From Parcubacteria group bacterium (GTDB lineage: Bacteria > Patescibacteriota > Minisyncoccia > Phycocordibacterales > Zambryskibacteraceae): 41,179 nucleotides of DNA. Numbering within the stretch: the stretch's first letter is position 1; each line of letters opens with the position of its first letter. Location: contig JBKJKY010000068.1 of assembly GCA_046597175.1 (NCBI GenBank), positions 1-41,179 on the forward strand. The letters run 5' to 3'. Both the position numbers and the translations under genes were made by a program. The notes beneath the pieces were generated by a model. It was not told the DNA's origin. It was given only the letters and a program-made list of their open reading frames with translations, and ran no database searches. This document shows positions 13,833-41,179 of this stretch, piece after piece.

Positions 13833-14110
13833 AGCTTCCCCTTCAGCATATCGAACAACTGCATCGTCTTGCCGTTGTTGAGTAGATTCATCATGGACTG
13901 GATTTCGACGTGGGTGAAGGTGACCACGGTCATGGAGTCTTCAAGGTCTGAAATGTGAATGGCCTTTTCTTTTTTTGGATTGTCGCAACGCAAATCAGCC
14001 TCTTCCTTCGTGTAACGTCCCGCCTGCTTGACTTCCCCGGTATAGCCGCAACTGTTCGGCATCCACCACGCTTTGTGCTCTAACGACCAAATTAGATAAT
14101 CCTTGCTCAT
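13829..14110 (-). CDS. Hypothetical early protein
   Basis: 93-aa ORF coupled to the upstream gene by a 4-nt overlap. Confidence 0.55.
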   Translation of the reverse strand: MSKDYLIWSLEHKAWWMPNSCGYTGEVKQAGRYTKEEADLRCDNPKKEKAIHISDLEDSMTVVTFTHVEIQSMMNLLNNGKTMQLFDMLKGKL

Positions 14111-14526
14111 ACCTTCCCCTCCTCTGTGCGAAGCGGGGGCGGTTCAGTGGCGGGTTGCTGAATGGGTGAGAGGGCGATTTTGTCCGTTGCAAATCCATGT
14201 AGATGCAGGAGTTGCGTGGCCTCACTCCATTCCAGCTCAGGAATGTCGAACGCGTTAGCGAAAGTCCTAAGCGTATACAGAAGTCCTAAGCTTAGCTTCA
14301 GAGCCTCATCCTTCCTTACGCTATCTGCGCGTAGCAGGGTGAGTTCTTGGGAGTCGTGGCGGGTGTTCCAGTTGGTCTGTACGTCCTCTTGTAGAGATAC
14401 GGGGCCGCTTGCGTGGCAATTCACACAACGGCTTTGGAAGTAGCTCGTCTCTGGAAGGCTGTCGATTACCACTTTTAAGTATCCGCAAAACGGACACAGC
14501 TTCAGTTCATTGCTTGGTGTTGTCAT
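14107..14526 (-). CDS. Lar-like zinc-ribbon protein (restriction alleviation family) with a C-terminal extension
   Basis: Contains LKLCPFCG...RCVNCHASGP...NWNTR, the CxxC...CxxC plus WN.R pattern typical of the Lar family. Confidence 0.55.
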   Translation of the reverse strand: MTTPSNELKLCPFCGYLKVVIDSLPETSYFQSRCVNCHASGPVSLQEDVQTNWNTRHDSQELTLLRADSVRKDEALKLSLGLLYTLRTFANAFDIPELEWSEATQLLHLHGFATDKIALSPIQQPATEPPPLRTEEGKV

Positions 14527-14570: not shown

Positions 14571-14714
14571 TTAGCAACCGGAACCGTAACCAGAACCGTA
14601 ACCGTAACCGTAACCGTCACCGGAACCGGCACCGTAACCGTCACCGGAACCGTTTCCTATGGAAGAAAAATTTTGCGAATCTTCCCCGATATTCACTAAC
14701 ATTTCGCGCTCCAT
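14571..14714 (-). CDS. Untracked 47-aa peptide with a C-terminal (Gly-X)x14 repeat
   Basis: Hand-translated as MEREMLVNIGEDSQNFSSIGNGSGDGYGAGSGDGYGYGYGSGYGSGC. The frame opens after a TGA at 14721-14723. ATGs lie at 14714 and 14702. It overlaps the 3' end of the upstream gene. It is encoded by 14 NNNACC hexamers (14574..14657). Confidence 0.5.
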   Translation of the reverse strand: MEREMLVNIGEDSQNFSSIGNGSGDGYGAGSGDGYGYGYGSGYGSGC

Positions 14715-15665: not shown

Positions 15666-16400
15666 TCATTTGGATTCCTTAAATTCCTCTTCGCAAAGGT
15701 GCAACCACTTACAACCAGGGCTTTTCAACTCAATAAGACATTCCAGACAGATATCTGCCATGAGTGTTAATACTTCATCGATGGCGTTGGCGTTGGCGTT
15801 GGCGTAGGCGATGGCGATGGCGTTGGCGTTGGCGTAGGCGTTGGCGTTGGCGTAGTCGTTGGCGATGGCGATGGCGATGGCGTTGGCGTAGGCGATGGCG
15901 CAGGCGTAGTCGTTGGCGTTGGCGATGGCGATGGCGTAGTCGTTGGCGTTTTTTAATTGTTTATGAGCTGCAAGGAAGTCCGTCGCCGTCTCGCATATCA
16001 CCGCCGCCTTTTCTATTAAGAGATTTTCCTCATCCTTTTTTGTGAAATCCTTCATCTTGCGGAATAGGACGGGCATCATTTTTTGCATAGTTTTCAATAC
16101 CAGAAGTTCACGGAAAGTTTTCTGGTCGAGTTCATCACTTCCGAGTTGGGCAATGGCGATCTTCCTCAACCCTTTGGCTCGCGCAGCATCGCTGGACCAA
16201 TCGCAATCGTTGAGGTTGATTTTAAACCTTCTAACGTCTGACCCCACGCATTTAGGTTCATCACCATGAGGTAGTCCAAGCGCGAAACAAACAGCGGCCT
16301 CAACGCACATCTTGCCTGGCTCAGGCTCTCCCACTCCTTTAACTAACCCGTGATCTAGTAGACGGTTGATTTTAGTGACTAGTTTTTTTGTTATTTTCAT
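15666..16400 (-). CDS. Hypothetical protein with a Cys-containing N-terminal domain and an (Ala-X)x28 repeat
   Basis: ATG at 16400 (the track start at 16403 is TTG). The N-terminus carries the GKMCVEAAVCFALGLPHGDEPKCV motif. Nt 15780..15947 are 28 hexamers encoding 12 AN, 9 AI, 3 AY, 3 DY and 1 AC. Confidence 0.7.
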   Translation of the reverse strand: MKITKKLVTKINRLLDHGLVKGVGEPEPGKMCVEAAVCFALGLPHGDEPKCVGSDVRRFKINLNDCDWSSDAARAKGLRKIAIAQLGSDELDQKTFRELLVLKTMQKMMPVLFRKMKDFTKKDEENLLIEKAAVICETATDFLAAHKQLKNANDYAIAIANANDYACAIAYANAIAIAIANDYANANAYANANAIAIAYANANANAIDEVLTLMADICLECLIELKSPGCKWLHLCEEEFKESK

Positions 16401-16573
16401 CAATTATTCTCCTCCATAATTTCAATCTGCTCCATCAAATCCGCAATCGCGTCGGCTTCGGTCGCTCCTGAGCCGTGCAATTTTCCGTCCATGTCGTTGT
16501 CCGTGTCCACGGCGATCCAGTCCCAGCCACGGGGATGGATAGGCTTGGGGTCGTAGGTTGTTTTGATGTTCAT
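16400..16573 (-). CDS. Small hypothetical protein (57 aa), not in the track
   Basis: Hand-translated as MNIKTTYDPKPIHPRGWDWIAVDTDNDMDGKLHGSGATEADAIADLMEQIEIMEENN. Both its start and its stop overlap neighbouring genes. Confidence 0.5.
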   Translation of the reverse strand: MNIKTTYDPKPIHPRGWDWIAVDTDNDMDGKLHGSGATEADAIADLMEQIEIMEENN

Positions 16574-16713: not shown

Positions 16714-18474
16714 TTAACTTTGCACCATCGGCTGATATTCGTCGCCTCTCATACCAAACGTGGATGCGACCGCATTATGCGCCGTTAACGCCTGAGGTTC
16801 ACCCATACCGCCTTCTGGAAGCATCGGACGCAACTCAGGATGCACGCGAATAAAATAATCCTTGAAATGGCCGTCAGGTTCAGGCGTTGAATTAACTACC
16901 TTAACCATCATCAACGGTTCATCACCCTGGATCTCTTTACGGTACAGCGTACCCCAATCATCGTGGTTGATTTCTTTGGCTCCAGAATCCATTAGGTAAC
17001 GTGCCTGACCGTAACGCTCGATCATTACTCGCCGTACTTCTGCATTTTTCTCCTCCTCGATTTTTCCCACTGTAATACTTTTAGGCTGTTCGATAATCCA
17101 CATCGGCACGCGGACTCCGTGCACTGCGTACAATGCTGAACCGTCGCGCCATTGACAGCATGGTCCGTCTTCGCAATGAGGTCTGTTTTGATCATCAACT
17201 TTTAACACTTTTGGCCGATCTGATATCATGCAAAAATCTTCGTGCATAACACGTGGCCCGCCATGAATTGCAGCTGTTTCCCAATGTTGATATTTTTCGT
17301 ATTCCTTCAAGTCTAGCTTGGCTACGGTTTTGAAAAAACTCAAGAAACCAGCCCATGCACTCCATTGGTTACCACCTTGCCACATGTTGTAGGTGTTTTG
17401 CGTGCATTTCATAAGGAAACTAGGATTCTGTTGATGCAAGATTTTGCTTAGTTGGTTGAGTTTCATTAAGTCCCCGCAATAAAACCAATTTTTCATACTG
17501 CCGTCTATCGCAACTTGTGTTGCATCAACTGTTGCATAGCGGGTTGCCTCGTATGTTGCCTCGAGTGTTGCAGCGTGTGTCGCAGCGTATGTGGCATCGT
17601 ATGTGGCAGCGTGTGTTGCCTCGTCTGTTGCCTCGTATGTTGCCTCGTCTGTTGCCTCGTATGTTGCAGCGCGTGTTGCCTCGTCTGTTGCAGCGTCTGT
17701 TGCATCGCGTGTTGCCTCGTCTGTTGCCTCGAGTGTTGCCTCGAGTGTTGCAGCTTCTGTTGCCTCGGCTGTTGCAGCGGCTGTGGCATCGTATGTTGCA
17801 TCGTATGTCGCAGCGTCAGTTGCATCGCGGGTTGCAGCGCGTGTTGCCTCGGCTGTTGCAGCGCGTGTTGCAGCTTCTGTTGCCTCGTATGTTGCAGCGT
17901 GTGTTGCATCGGATGTGGCATCGCGGGTTGCCTCGTATGTTGAAGCGTCTGTTGCAGCGTCTGTTGCAGCGGCTGTTGCAGCGGCTGTGGCAGCGGCTGT
18001 GGCATCGCGTGTTGCAGCGCGGGTTGCCTCGTATGTTGCAGCATCTATTGCAGCGGCTGTTGCCTCGTATGTTGCAGCGTGTGTTGCATCGTCAGTTGCA
18101 TCGCGTGTTGCAGCGTCTGTTGCAGCGTGTGTTGCAGCGCGGGTTGCAGCTTCTGTTGCATAGCGTGTTGCAGCGTCTGTTGCAGCGGCTGTTGCAGCGG
18201 CTGTGGCATCGCGCTTGGACCTATCACCTTTTCTCGACTGCAGAATACCAGCCGCAAAACCACCCGCGAATCGCAGCACGAACGGAGACGGAACAAATAC
18301 AATATTCTTTGGAGACTTCAAGCCTGCTGCCGCATATAATCCGTTGACGGCTTCCACCATTTTAGTTTTATCCTCGGCGTCCATCGCTTTTGTTGACATT
18401 GCATTAGCAGTCCACTTGTCAGCCCATGGTTTTAGCTCTGCCCTGTGTGCGTCTGTGAGTGTATATTTTTTCAT
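16714..18474 (-). CDS. Repeat protein: N-terminal domain, (Thr-x-x-Ala)x58 tract, and a C-terminal domain resembling the uncharacterised DUF6745-type family
   Basis: 586-aa ORF. Nt 17509..18216 are 59 consecutive 12-mers. The C-terminus (QWRDGSALYAVHGVRVP...NAEVRRVMIERYG...STPEPDG...TAHNAVASTFG) matches my memory of a conserved bacterial/phage domain of unknown function. Confidence 0.8.
   Translation of the reverse strand: MKKYTLTDAHRAELKPWADKWTANAMSTKAMDAEDKTKMVEAVNGLYAAAGLKSPKNIVFVPSPFVLRFAGGFAAGILQSRKGDRSKRDATAAATAAATDAATRYATEAATRAATHAATDAATRDATDDATHAATYEATAAAIDAATYEATRAATRDATAAATAAATAAATDAATDASTYEATRDATSDATHAATYEATEAATRAATAEATRAATRDATDAATYDATYDATAAATAEATEAATLEATLEATDEATRDATDAATDEATRAATYEATDEATYEATDEATHAATYDATYAATHAATLEATYEATRYATVDATQVAIDGSMKNWFYCGDLMKLNQLSKILHQQNPSFLMKCTQNTYNMWQGGNQWSAWAGFLSFFKTVAKLDLKEYEKYQHWETAAIHGGPRVMHEDFCMISDRPKVLKVDDQNRPHCEDGPCCQWRDGSALYAVHGVRVPMWIIEQPKSITVGKIEEEKNAEVRRVMIERYGQARYLMDSGAKEINHDDWGTLYRKEIQGDEPLMMVKVVNSTPEPDGHFKDYFIRVHPELRPMLPEGGMGEPQALTAHNAVASTFGMRGDEYQPMVQS
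17509..18216 (-). repeat. 59 x 12-nt in-frame tandem repeat (coding-strand consensus ACA NNC GMK GCA)
   Basis: All 59 units were enumerated by hand. Variation is confined almost entirely to 4 of the 12 positions. Confidence 0.95.
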
Positions 18475-18484
18475 GTGTTTTTCC

Positions 18485-18802
18485 TCAGTCTAAAACATTG
18501 CGAATAGCCTCAGGCGCATATTCTTTTTGCTGCACCTTCTCATAGATGCCTTCAGGAATATCGATGGTCCCATGTTCCTGATGTGTAATCTGCGCAGGCT
18601 CCGTCGTAGTGAAGAAAATAGAATTGTCCATTTCTAGCACTTTCACCGGAGCATCTACTTCCAACACATGGCTGTGACCTGTTACCTCACCAAGTGCAAG
18701 CGTGAGATTTTTCTGATTTTTAGCTGTTCCTTTTGGCATAGCTTCGATGGATTTAACCAGCACGTCACCCTGCCGAATCATTATTGTTTTTTTAGTTTTC
18801 AT
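18485..18802 (-). CDS. Hypothetical protein
   Basis: 105 aa. The IRQGDVLV...GEVTGHSHVL pattern recurs in phage proteins of unknown function (from memory only). Confidence 0.55.
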   Translation of the reverse strand: MKTKKTIMIRQGDVLVKSIEAMPKGTAKNQKNLTLALGEVTGHSHVLEVDAPVKVLEMDNSIFFTTTEPAQITHQEHGTIDIPEGIYEKVQQKEYAPEAIRNVLD

Positions 18803-25443: not shown

Positions 25444-25860
25444 ATGAAAATCTTTGCCATCTTGATAAATATCGCCCTTTTCATCATCAGCTTGTCGGTT
25501 TGTGGAAACACCGATTTTGAAAACCAGGGAGGAATCGCCGCGGTGCTTATGGTGCCTCCGGTTTTTTGTTTGTTTGTGTTGACCATTGTTTACGTTTGGC
25601 CAGGCCGTGATTTCGCGAACTGGCTGGCATTATTGTGGGTACGTAAATACGGGGAAGAGGTCTCACTCGGGAGCGCTCGCCTCAGTGAGAAGCTCAAGGA
25701 GATGATCGAAATGAAGCGGCAACAAGAATCAAACTTTGATGATACGGATGCTAACTCGATTGGGGAGTCTCTTAGAGATCTTGGAATCAGTTCGACTGCT
25801 GTGAGTTCGATAGTTGATGGTATCCGTGCAGGGCAGCACAGAGTTCAACCTAAGGCTTGA
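25444..25860 (+). CDS. Two-TM membrane protein with a cytoplasmic tail (superinfection-exclusion candidate)
   Basis: TM segments are IFAILINIALFIISLSV and AAVLMVPPVFCLFVLTIVYV. It converges on the integrase gene with an 11-nt overlap. Confidence 0.5.
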   Translation: MKIFAILINIALFIISLSVCGNTDFENQGGIAAVLMVPPVFCLFVLTIVYVWPGRDFANWLALLWVRKYGEEVSLGSARLSEKLKEMIEMKRQQESNFDDTDANSIGESLRDLGISSTAVSSIVDGIRAGQHRVQPKA

Positions 25861-27079
25861 TCAGTTCCCAAAACGCCAATCCATCCTTCTGAGGAATAGG
25901 GCGGCGGTAGTGCTTCCTTAAAACCTTAACGTCGTGGCCCGCCATGTGGGCGGTAAGCGCCTCGTTCTGGAATGCAGCCAGGTGGTAAGAGCAGTAGGTG
26001 TGTCGCATTACGTCATGAGGCCATTCTGCACGATCCGCGGCGAGTGCCGCCTCGTCTGCGTAGAACACCTGCTTGCCGTCGACTCGCTTTTTCCTGACCA
26101 ACCAAACCTTATACCCGAGCTGAACGCGGAGAGCGTCCCATCGGTTTCGAAAGTTCGGCTGGATCAAGGGGCCCGACCATTTTTCCTCTCCAGGCATCTT
26201 GGCGGTGAGCAGCTTCTCAACGCCCGTTTCCATTTTAACGTACCTAAAGCGGCCCGTCTTGCCGGCATGGACGCGGACAGATCCGTTGTCCTGGATGTCG
26301 CCGCGGCTCGCCTTTTCGGCCTCAGACGGGCGCAACCCAACAAATAGGCACAAGACCACATAGCGTCGGATATCCGCGTTAGAAGCCATTGCAGCTTCAA
26401 AGAGAGCCTTTGCTGCGGGGACAGTGAGGATGCTCACTTCCTTCTCCTGGTACACTTCCTTGAATTTGATGCACGAGCATGGGTTGACCGTAATCCATTC
26501 GTTAGGGAAGATGCACCATTCGAACATTTCTGAAGCGGTTTTCTTGTAGTCCTGCTTCGCCAGGACGGACAAAGGTAGGGCGTGAATCCAATCGTGCATT
26601 TTTTTGAAGGTAATCTCATGCAGCTTGGTGGCGCCTTCCTGGTCGAGCAGGGAGGTGATGCGAGTATTGAGGTTGCTGCGAGTCTGCTTTCTCATGCCTG
26701 TGCCGTCCTTGGTCTTCAACCAATCCTCGGCCACTTTAGCCAGGGTCATATTGGCTTTAGATTTCGCCTTCAAGTGGTCGGCATAGAACTCGCACGCTTT
26801 GAGCAGGGATGCGTTGTGAATGCGTAGGAGCTCAGTGGCTCGGAGTGCGTCCAAAGTCTCGGCAGGGCTCAAGCTCGGCCCAACAATGGCGGGCTGGAAT
26901 ACCTCATTGAACACGGCCTCAGCTCGACCTTGCGCCTCAGCCTTTGTTTTAAAGCGTTCCTTTCGGCCCGTCCTGACCTCGCCATTGTCTTGCTTGTAAA
27001 CGTGATAGCGGCCGTCCATAATCCAAGCTTTTGAACCATGCTCCGAGACCTCAAACACATGTGGAATTTTACGTTTCAT
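25850..27079 (-). CDS. int: Tyrosine integrase
   Basis: 409 aa. The C-terminal catalytic pattern is HDVMRHTYCSY (HxxR) ... GHDVKVLRKHY (catalytic Tyr), with a SAM-like N-terminal region. It is adjacent to attP-like repeats. Confidence 0.85.
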   Translation of the reverse strand: MKRKIPHVFEVSEHGSKAWIMDGRYHVYKQDNGEVRTGRKERFKTKAEAQGRAEAVFNEVFQPAIVGPSLSPAETLDALRATELLRIHNASLLKACEFYADHLKAKSKANMTLAKVAEDWLKTKDGTGMRKQTRSNLNTRITSLLDQEGATKLHEITFKKMHDWIHALPLSVLAKQDYKKTASEMFEWCIFPNEWITVNPCSCIKFKEVYQEKEVSILTVPAAKALFEAAMASNADIRRYVVLCLFVGLRPSEAEKASRGDIQDNGSVRVHAGKTGRFRYVKMETGVEKLLTAKMPGEEKWSGPLIQPNFRNRWDALRVQLGYKVWLVRKKRVDGKQVFYADEAALAADRAEWPHDVMRHTYCSYHLAAFQNEALTAHMAGHDVKVLRKHYRRPIPQKDGLAFWELIKP

Positions 27080-39478: not shown

Positions 39479-41179
39479 ATGCCAACCATCCCGCAATATA
39501 ATGTCGGGCAGGTGCGCAATGCCGATCTGCCAGCCAATGCGATGTCTGCCAATGCATCGGCGGCATCATTCGGTGGTAATGAAGCAGAAGGACTTTCAGC
39601 TCTCAGTCAAGGCTTAGGCCGTGCAGGATACACGGCTGGCAATATCGCGGTGAACATTCAGGAGCGGGATAACGAGGATGTTGTTCGTGGCCAGATGAAC
39701 ACGGCGCGAGCCGAAATGAATCAGTTCGCGCAAGAGCAATACTCTCTGAAAGGCAGTGATGCCTTTGGCGCTAGCACGCGCATCAAGGAGCACGCTGAAA
39801 AGGTTCAAGCGAAGTACGAGCAGAGCCTTGGGAATGATGTCCAGAAGCGCACATTCTCGAATGTGTTTGGATCGTACGCAGGAGAGCATTTGCTCCGGTC
39901 TCAGAACTTCGAGCGCGATCAGATGGATGCCTATCATCAGCAGACTCTCAATCAGTCCGTGGATAGATCGGTTGAAGAGATTCAGATGCACATGAATGAT
40001 CCTGATTTTGTGACGGGGCGACTCGGTGAGATCGCTGCTGACACTCGGCGGCTGAACTCTGGCCGTGGGGATATCGATGAGAAGGTGAAGTTGGCGATTC
40101 AAGGCACGCTTCTGAAAGCCATCTCGGAGAAATCCGCTACTGATCCAGTGGGTGCGCTCACATTTCTTGAAACGCATATCGGCAACCTTGGGAAAGGTGA
40201 GCATATCATCACTTTGCAGAAACGACTTCAGGGACAAGTCAAAGATTTGAGGAATGCCGATATCATCATGCGTGAGACTGCCGCGCCTGGCGCAACTCTT
40301 GAAACGGTGATTGCCTCGATCGACAAGCAGAACCTTCCTCCCGATGAGAAGGAAAAGGCTCTTGCGGGTGCGCGGGCTCAAATGTCGATCCGCACCGAAG
40401 CGCAAGCTCAGTCGGAGCGCAAAGCCACTGAAGGCGGCTGGAATCAATTTTACACAGCGCCCAGCGCGGCGACGATTGCTACTTTACCTATTTCTCCTGA
40501 AGAAAAGCAGAAAATGACGGAAAAGCTTACGGTGATGACCAAGATTAAAACCGATGCCGAGTACGCTGGCAAGTATGGCGAAGTCTTGCGCATGTCGAAG
40601 AAAGATTTCCTCGAGAAAAATCTCTTTGAGATCCGCTATGACGTTTCGCCACAACAATACCAGAATCTTGTTAAGGATCAGGATGAGCTAAGGAAGACGG
40701 GTAAGGAAAAGACTCCTGGATTTGCGGCGGCGATTAAGGATGCAACTACTGAGGCTGGGAAGCTTGAACCTTTCCACATTGGAGAAACAGATTCTCAAGA
40801 AGTGATTGTTAAAAAGCAGGACGCATTGAATCAATTTGTATCGGCTTATTCATCTAGGCTTGAGGCTATTCCTGACGCTCAGCGCAACGATTGGAAAGTT
40901 AAGCAAGACATTCGAAATGAACTCCTGAAGGAAGTGGTCATTAATCATCGAAGCCCGTTGTCTTGGCTGAACGGAGCGATTGATGGCGTTCCTTTCGGAT
41001 CGGATGAGAAGGCTGCTCGGTATGAAATAGAAAGCGGTGCCAAGGCGGGTGCTCCTGTGGTACCGGCGACAAAGCAAACCACCGGATTCAAGACTCGTGA
41101 GGAGATCAAAAAAGCTTATGACAGCGGATGGATTACTGAAAAGCAGGGCATTGATGAGATTCAGAGCTTAAAAAAAAAG
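39479..41179 (+). CDS. 5' part of the wrap-around gene (continues at 1..552; 711 aa in total): internal virion protein C (gp15-like)
   Basis: Absent from the ORF track because it has no stop codon inside the window. Hand translation from the ATG at 39479 is open to 41179 and in phase with frame 1 at nt 1. Confidence 0.8.
   Translation, partial: MPTIPQYNVGQVRNADLPANAMSANASAASFGGNEAEGLSALSQGLGRAGYTAGNIAVNIQERDNEDVVRGQMNTARAEMNQFAQEQYSLKGSDAFGASTRIKEHAEKVQAKYEQSLGNDVQKRTFSNVFGSYAGEHLLRSQNFERDQMDAYHQQTLNQSVDRSVEEIQMHMNDPDFVTGRLGEIAADTRRLNSGRGDIDEKVKLAIQGTLLKAISEKSATDPVGALTFLETHIGNLGKGEHIITLQKRLQGQVKDLRNADIIMRETAAPGATLETVIASIDKQNLPPDEKEKALAGARAQMSIRTEAQAQSERKATEGGWNQFYTAPSAATIATLPISPEEKQKMTEKLTVMTKIKTDAEYAGKYGEVLRMSKKDFLEKNLFEIRYDVSPQQYQNLVKDQDELRKTGKEKTPGFAAAIKDATTEAGKLEPFHIGETDSQEVIVKKQDALNQFVSAYSSRLEAIPDAQRNDWKVKQDIRNELLKEVVINHRSPLSWLNGAIDGVPFGSDEKAARYEIESGAKAGAPVVPATKQTTGFKTREEIKKAYDSGWITEKQGIDEIQSLKKK
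41063..41179. repeat. Terminal direct repeat, right copy (identical to 1..117)
   Basis: Exact 117-nt match to the window start. Confidence 0.95.

Follow-up and report, generated by a model that had tools for sequence, protein, structure and literature searches.

A tetrapeptide array of variable length and composition joins two conserved domains in a widespread family of phage proteins

The window analyzed here is a 41,179-nucleotide contig from the assembly of a Parcubacteria group bacterium (GenBank GCA_046597175.1, contig JBKJKY010000068.1). An open reading frame (ORF) at 16714–18474 on its minus strand, delineated by ORF calling and homologue searches, encodes a 586-residue protein of the DUF6745 family in which a tandem array of tetrapeptides, each with two fixed and two variable residues, joins two conserved parts. 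The array is real and occurs throughout the family, it varies between relatives with identical flanks, it is locked in its codons and has an excess of nonsynonymous differences, and it is predicted to be helical. We favor, with moderate confidence and by analogy to gp54 of mycobacteriophage Tweety, a reading in which the recombination-prone, positively selected, and probably helical array tunes the length and surface of a two-domain phage protein that most likely acts in counter-defence.

Results

A 58-unit array between two conserved domains

The enumeration of coding-strand 12-mers places 58 units of 12 nucleotides at 17509–18204 (amino acids 91–322), all of them in one register and in frame; the positions of this gene and its parts refer to the minus strand throughout. 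The units conform to the consensus ACA NNC GMK GCA, given previously in a first-pass annotation of the sequence, and encode the tetrapeptide T-x1-x2-A. Nucleotides 1, 2, 7, 10, and 11 of the unit are essentially fixed. Threonine is present in 57 of the 58 units (one Ile) and alanine also in 57 (one Ser). A degenerate leading unit, K-R-D-A, at 18205–18216 on the N-terminal side can be counted as the 59th, in agreement with the earlier estimate of 58 or 59 units, and a degenerate trailing unit, I-D-G-S, is positioned on the C-terminal side at 17497–17508. Tandem Repeats Finder reports a repeat with a period of 12 (55.8 copies, score 491) at 17543–18211, and a second repeat search of the window returned the 12-nucleotide spacing again.

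Position x1 is occupied by 12 D, 12 R, 11 Y, 9 A, 5 H, 3 E, 3 L, and one each of S, V, and Q, whereas x2 is restricted to 28 A, 16 E, 11 D, 2 Y, and 1 V. The two positions combine into 17 types of di-residues. The tract contains 42 Asp or Glu residues against 12 Arg and has a net charge of −30. These tallies, as well as the single Ile and Ser substitutions, exactly reproduce those of the first-pass annotation, which had also noted no obvious pattern above the level of the unit; the shuffle test at lags 1–15 likewise detected no higher-order periodicity in the order of the units in the window. The alanine codon is always GCC at x1, always GCT at x2, and mostly GCA in the scaffold. In comparisons of pairs of units from the window, the ratio of nonsynonymous to synonymous differences is 1414:11 at x1 and 1099:0 at x2. 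The ORFs on the plus strand within the array (e.g., 17517–18347) are stop-free artefacts of the repeat. When homologues are compared, the amino acids are preserved despite changes of codons in no frame other than that of the minus strand.

The array is preceded by a conserved N-terminal domain (amino acids 1–86, 18217–18474), defined from the AlphaFold2 model and conserved residues, of which Y4, H10, W17, W21, N24, T28, S63, P64, and W78 are nearly invariant. The conserved C-terminal globular region spans amino acids ~325–586 and includes the DUF6745 domain (amino acids 385–585, 16720–17322), the assignment of which agrees with the first-pass annotation. The match to Pfam PF20530 scores 156.2 bits with an E-value of 8.7e-46 and covers 187 of the 206 profile positions (gathering score 27 bits). 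Residues F414, P421, and H433 of this region are invariant. The Pfam model describes the C-terminal domain alone and has no assigned function; it includes neither the N-terminal domain nor the array nor the partner gene described below.

The array occurs throughout the DUF6745 family

A word-indexed search for homologues returned 942 matches, and the first 120 listed were examined. All 120 carry PF20530, have lengths of 344–844 amino acids, and nearly all of them contain an array of the form x-x-Ala-Thr with 5–68 units that starts directly after amino acid ~85–95. An exhaustive search identified 8,380 representative clusters at E ≤ 1e-3, of which 1,406 reach E ≤ 1e-30. At least five units are present in ~187 of 257 homologues, with a maximum of 74, and over all arrays surveyed the number of units is from 5 to about 150. 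The layout of an N-terminal domain of ~88 amino acids, a period-4 array with two fixed residues, and a C-terminal DUF6745 domain is that of most of the 257 homologues, and the protein from the window fits it. One 847-residue member (P0249) has three tandem DUF6745 cores without an array, so that this core can by itself serve as a repeating module.

The scaffold is not identical in all lineages. The variants among the 257 homologues include AT, xSAT, xQAT, xxAV, and xxQV, and other lineages have QL and SV. The first scaffold position is thus small or polar (A, S, or Q) and the second beta-branched or hydrophobic (T, V, or L), which is more suggestive of a structural function than of a site of modification. 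Genome loci with the gene number 57, most of them in metagenome-assembled genomes, and are assigned to many phyla; the phages and prophages concerned belong to Proteobacteria, Planctomycetota, Verrucomicrobia, Actinobacteria, and others. Array proteins of prophage type are present in the cultured-bacterium assemblies of Phyllobacterium sp. LjRoot231 and Hansschlegelia zhihuaiae and in a metagenome-assembled genome of Sphingomonadales, which bears out the mention in the first-pass annotation of Ala-rich period-4 tracts in bacterial homologues. Protein gp38 of the Mycobacterium prophage prophiGD102-1 (L002:4161–5606), deposited as a "hypothetical protein", is also a member of the DUF6745 family (E 6e-29) and contains 45 x-x-Gln-Leu units with the alphabets G/R/W and D/G. 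Mycobacteriophages therefore carry both gp54-type and DUF6745-type array proteins. A search of a literature library yielded no mention of DUF6745 and no description of arrays in proteins of this family, and a megablast comparison of 16–24 kb of the window with the INPHARED phages gave no match.

Variation is concentrated at three nucleotides of the unit

Coding frames were taken from 80 viral-contig loci, and entropy and codon variants were calculated over 45 arrays. The codons of the scaffold differ between homologues (GCC-ACG, GCG-ACC, GCA-ACG, and GCC-ACT, compared with GCA-ACA in the window), but they are ~100% uniform inside each array. This combination indicates that the Ala-Thr pair is selected as protein and that the DNA of each array has been homogenized or recently expanded. 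The mean entropy per nucleotide of the unit is 1.27, 0.77, and 0.10 bits in the x1 codon, 0.28, 1.07, and 0.16 bits in the x2 codon, and 0.01, 0.01, 0.08 and 0.03, 0.05, 0.07 bits in the two scaffold codons. The variation is therefore concentrated at positions 1 and 2 of the x1 codon and position 2 of the x2 codon. Relative to the consensus of each array, the codon variants comprise 515 nonsynonymous and 43 synonymous changes. Neutral slippage combined with purifying selection would leave the synonymous sites no less variable than the rest; the observed pattern thus indicates either selection for amino acid diversity at x1 and x2 or a targeted mutational process.

Which residues occur at x1 depends on the third base of its codon, which is fixed: NNC or NNT provides R, D, Y, H, and S, and NNG provides R, W, E, and G. 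Over 2,898 units of the family, x1 is R in 25%, D in 18%, Y in 13%, S in 7%, E in 6%, and W in 6%, and x2 is A in 53% and D in 26%. The net charge per unit, determined for 143 arrays, is between −0.91 and +0.56, with a median of −0.27.

Arrays differ between relatives with identical flanks

The comparison of homologues proposed in the first-pass annotation shows that the number and order of the units vary while the two-residue scaffold is retained within arrays. The tracts of six related proteins (P0011, P0038, P0040, P0065, P0037, and P0062) have 172, 87, 83, 47, 43, and 23 amino acids, respectively, and their N- and C-terminal domains are 99.6–100% identical in nearly all pairs, except for the N-terminal domains of P0037 and P0062, which are 92.9% identical. 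Proteins P0102, P0103, and P0105, a second set with closely matching flanking domains, contain 24, 27, and 23 units. Two loci from different metagenomes (L145 and L146) share 2,767 nucleotides of upstream DNA with zero mismatches, yet their arrays have 24 and 27 units and also differ over the first ~10 units.

The array is predicted to form an alpha-helix

The structure of the protein was predicted by AlphaFold2 with an alignment of 119 sequences, and the model has a predicted template modeling score of 0.63. The predicted local distance difference test (pLDDT) scores are about 84–98 in the N-terminal domain and above 90 for amino acids ~330–586. Most of the tract is modeled as four long helices (residues 64–138, 151–171, 180–253, and 275–318) with pLDDT of 45–86, highest at both ends, and the last helix of the N-terminal domain runs on into the array as part of helix 64–138. 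The statement in the first-pass annotation that a period of four fits no fold is not borne out by this prediction. With a period of four residues on an alpha-helix, successive x1 residues are i/i+4 neighbors. By standard helix geometry, equivalent positions of the units would be arranged in four ridges that advance +40° per unit and complete one turn per nine units, and the 232 residues, if they formed one uninterrupted helix, would extend over ~35 nm. The charges of successive x1 residues alternate more than when units are shuffled within arrays (−107 observed against a mean of +24.5 for the shuffles, z = −5.3, where related units are not independent), which is consistent with i/i+4 salt bridges.

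The predicted long, exposed, Ala-rich helix with regular Thr resembles the single alpha-helix spacers of the ER/K type and type I antifreeze rods. The surplus of oppositely charged i/i+4 neighbors on one ridge would also fit a single alpha-helix. In contrast to ER/K helices, the composition of the array is dominated by Ala and Thr and not by Glu, Arg, and Lys, and unlike type I antifreeze proteins, which have a period of 11, the array has a period of exactly four and is encoded by homogenized DNA repeats. The only sequence-profile matches in the Protein Data Bank (PDB), to designed helical repeats, circumsporozoite protein, and KHDC3, are low-complexity look-alikes produced by the tract and were not taken as homology.

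The array protein resembles Tweety gp54 in architecture

To our knowledge, Tweety gp54 is the sole phage protein with a tetrapeptide array that has been tied to a function, and it has been regarded as a mycobacteriophage curiosity. It contains 48 Ala-Ala-x-x units encoded by a 12-bp repeat between unique N- and C-terminal regions; the third codon positions are invariant while the first and second vary, and the number and alphabet of the repeats differ in the relatives from phages Che8 (gp57) and PMC (gp51) (PMC2884959). Mutants of Tweety that escape the Phrann gp29/gp30 defence gain or lose repeats, and these changes were interpreted as adjusting how the two end domains are placed relative to each other (2022 review, PMC9262239).

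Both gp54 and the DUF6745 array protein are early-region proteins with conserved N- and C-terminal parts and tens of in-frame 12-bp units, in which two residues are fixed and two vary, third positions are fixed, and the number of repeats differs between close relatives. The scaffold is Ala-Ala-x-x in gp54 but x-x-Ala-Thr in the DUF6745 array. The C-terminal tail of gp54 has ~40 amino acids, whereas the protein from the window ends in a 264-residue DUF6745 region and members of its family often have a partner gene. The gp54 family is that of actinobacteriophages, whereas the DUF6745 array family spans many bacterial phyla. Homology of the two proteins was considered and rejected: their hhalign comparison has an E-value of 0.3 and a probability of 0.2%, and Tweety gp54 has no Pfam or DUF6745 match.

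Phage genome and neighboring genes

Bases 1–117 of the window are repeated exactly at 41063–41179. This 117-nucleotide terminal direct repeat indicates that the window is a circularly closed, complete phage genome of ~41.06 kb. The genes for terminase, portal, and major head proteins are on the plus strand, and an integrase gene is present at 25850–27079; this annotation points to a temperate phage. The array gene belongs to a minus-strand block with Sak4-like, single-stranded DNA-binding protein (SSB), DnaD/DnaC-like, and resolvase genes. As judged from synteny, this block would be expressed early, which is in line with the early operon proposed in the first-pass annotation. The Lar-like gene mentioned there is located at 14107–14526 (minus strand), ~2.2 kb downstream of the array gene, but its match is weak (E 1e-6 in PHROG; E 4e-5 in Pfam, where it falls short of the gathering score).

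The gene directly upstream of the array gene (18485–18802, minus strand) encodes a 105-residue protein assigned to phrog_27831 and ends 10 nucleotides before the array gene; we refer to it as the partner gene on the basis of the PHROG match and a survey of loci. Among the 72 loci in which both flanks are visible, relatives of the partner gene lie within 4.5 kb in 47; in 39 of these they are immediate neighbors of the array gene in the same orientation, 18 times on its upstream side and 21 times on its downstream side. Residues G38, H43, H45, H74, E76, H77, E94, and D105 of the partner protein are invariant, and its AlphaFold2 model is all-beta with ten strands (pLDDT 88). The protein has no Pfam family and no fold match in the PDB (best Foldseek E-value 0.65). 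We can only guess that it contains a cupin-like metal site.

Directly downstream of the array gene, at 15666–16403 on the minus strand, is a gene that is probably gp54-like according to profile comparison. Its product consists of an N-terminal domain of ~150 amino acids, a variable (Ala-x)n array, and a conserved tail of ~40 amino acids. The dipeptide array is encoded by a 6-bp repeat with ~28 copies at 15782–15950, and its length and alphabet vary among 560 homologues. The comparison of the profile of this family with that of gp54 has an hhalign E-value of 4e-4 and a probability of 35%, and the alignment superposes, with equal spacing, the invariant C..PxC..ND residues, which in the gp54 family belong to the N-terminal domain; weaker comparisons gave E-values of 0.043 against the Tweety sequence alone and 0.11 in BLASTP. 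The gene at 15666–16403 is probably a distant homologue of gp54 positioned beside a DUF6745 array gene.

The same operon contains a third repeat-bearing ORF, a putative 47-codon frame at 14571–14714 (minus strand) with Gly-Tyr and Gly-Ser dipeptides encoded by a 6-bp tandem repeat of 13 copies (14576–14653). On the plus strand, the 2,318-residue protein encoded at 549–7505 matches MuF_C (E 3e-19) and, less strongly than the Pfam cut-off requires, LPD22 (E 1.6e-4), which suggests that it is a large polyvalent protein. Rfam and tRNA scans of the window returned no hits.

Discussion

The properties of the array may be explained by the following mechanism. The tract would be a long Ala-rich alpha-helical rod that joins the N-terminal domain and the DUF6745 domain of an early accessory protein of a temperate phage. 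Recombination or slippage between the nearly identical 12-mers would add, remove, and reshuffle whole units with the reading frame kept, while amino acid-changing substitutions would build up at three nucleotides of the unit and the other positions, including the synonymous third bases, would stay uniform. The outcome would be a helix variable in length and surface chemistry, with the x1 residues forming one continuous ridge. By analogy to Tweety gp54, the array would be a contingency locus: a phage population would hold variants of the array, and selection would take those whose length and surface allow the protein to engage a fast-varying target of the host or a prophage, probably a defence system. 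The array protein may act jointly with the adjacent small His-rich beta-protein encoded by the partner gene. A role in counter-defence, tuning by the array, and a connection with the partner gene are all inferences; the analogy to gp54 makes the anti-defence role considered in the first-pass annotation plausible.

Several results weigh against this mechanism. In a minority of the family, the two conserved parts are joined by a short linker without repeats or by what is left of a degenerated array, which indicates that the fold does not depend on the array. The central part of the tract has low pLDDT (45–57), and the helical phase between the N- and C-terminal anchors has no preferred value among 96 homologues (Rayleigh p 0.34–0.72), which argues against one fixed geometry of a rigid ruler. 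A Foldseek search of the PDB with the full AlphaFold2 model provided no usable fold (best E-value 1.5), and only DUF6745 proteins were matched in BFVD; the structural checks proposed in the first-pass annotation yielded a helix predicted with low confidence and no relative in the PDB. The NCBIfam and PADLOC libraries contain no match for the array protein, its partner, or their neighbors. Since the array protein is not homologous to gp54, function can be transferred between them by architecture only. Furthermore, much of the variation between the arrays of relatives was observed in short-read metagenome assemblies, which often break at the array (~34 of the 80 viral loci, L003–L082, start inside it), and some of the differences between the arrays of relatives could be assembly artefacts such as mis-ordered units.

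The wide range of unit numbers, the linker-only and degenerate members, and the lack of a preferred helical phase would all be expected of a passive low-complexity linker, a neutral product of DNA slippage in which the variable residues are irrelevant. We consider this explanation unlikely, because the entropy of third positions is ~0.1 bits compared with 0.8–1.3 bits at the three variable nucleotides, nonsynonymous variants far outnumber synonymous ones, and the Ala-Thr scaffold is retained although lineages encode it with different codons. Another quite improbable explanation is that the tract mimics nucleic acid as a periodic acidic rod, or forms a code like that of transcription activator-like effectors (TALEs) with one di-residue per target element. 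The supported observation of an invariant scaffold with paired hypervariable positions, which the array shares with TALE, pentapeptide-repeat, and diversity-generating retroelement (DGR) proteins, speaks in its favor, as do the strong acidity of the tract in the window and the weak Lar-like gene nearby; the phage DNA mimics Ocr and ArdA are acidic and elongated. However, the span of charges per unit shows that acidity is not a property of the family, which weakens the reading of the array as a general mimic, and Arg is the commonest residue at x1. Neither Pfam nor the Foldseek search of the PDB returned an acidic DNA mimic similar to Ocr or ArdA. TALE repeats are DNA-binding units of 33–35 amino acids with a variable di-residue at positions 12 and 13, and pentapeptide repeats (PF00805) have a period of five, A(D/N)LXX, and form a beta-helix. 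In contrast, the unit of the array has four residues, the tract is predicted to be alpha-helical, and there is no Pfam match to a TAL-effector or pentapeptide repeat, so that membership in either class was rejected. A TALE-like code, as raised in the first-pass annotation, is also disfavored by the free change of unit order and number on identical flanks, by the order in the window without periodicity, and by the x1 alphabet, which follows from the fixed third base.

The contigs that begin within the array, together with long exact repeats in the arrays of some relatives, raise the question of whether the array, or the number and order of its units, is an artefact of assembly. This is very improbable for the window: the array is in frame and joins two conserved domains, the contig closes on itself through its terminal overlap, and the longest exact repeat inside the array is 43 nucleotides with no recurring 55-mer, so that short reads could resolve it. 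The module is also present in hundreds of independent assemblies, in genomes of cultured bacteria, and in the deposited Mycobacterium prophage. The proximity of replication genes is compatible with a DNA-level element such as replication iterons or a recombination site, and the stop-free NNC pattern of x1 codons is reminiscent of the AAC-to-NNC logic of DGRs, which are dedicated mutagenesis systems. We regard an origin of this kind as the remotest of the explanations considered. The retention of Ala-Thr through changes of codons reveals a constraint on the protein. Neither a reverse transcriptase among the scanned ORFs nor a second copy of the array in the window that could serve as a template was found, and no adenine of the scaffold codons ACA and GCA varies, which is incompatible with adenine-specific mutagenesis; the array was therefore rejected as a DGR target or a DNA-level element.

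The preferred reading, of a recombination-prone array that tunes a two-domain phage protein, can be extended to the tentative and rather unlikely proposal that DUF6745 and gp54-like arrays are a general diversity generator of temperate phages independent of retroelements, in which a codon-locked 12-bp cassette with three mutable nucleotides, and with a stop-free NNC or an NNG alphabet at x1, encodes a recombination-shuffled, combinatorial helical recognition ridge that directly contacts fast-evolving defence proteins of the host or of prophages. If this were true, phages would possess an adaptive repertoire for binding, spread over thousands of protein clusters from many bacterial phyla. The arrays often break short-read assemblies of phages, and their diversity is therefore probably under-counted and in some cases mis-assembled. 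The design principle of Tweety gp54 recurs in an unrelated and far larger family. If the analogy to gp54 holds, the arrays would be contingency loci by which temperate phages track variable defences, and the x1/x2 ridge would be a natural, minimal, and evolvable binding scaffold.

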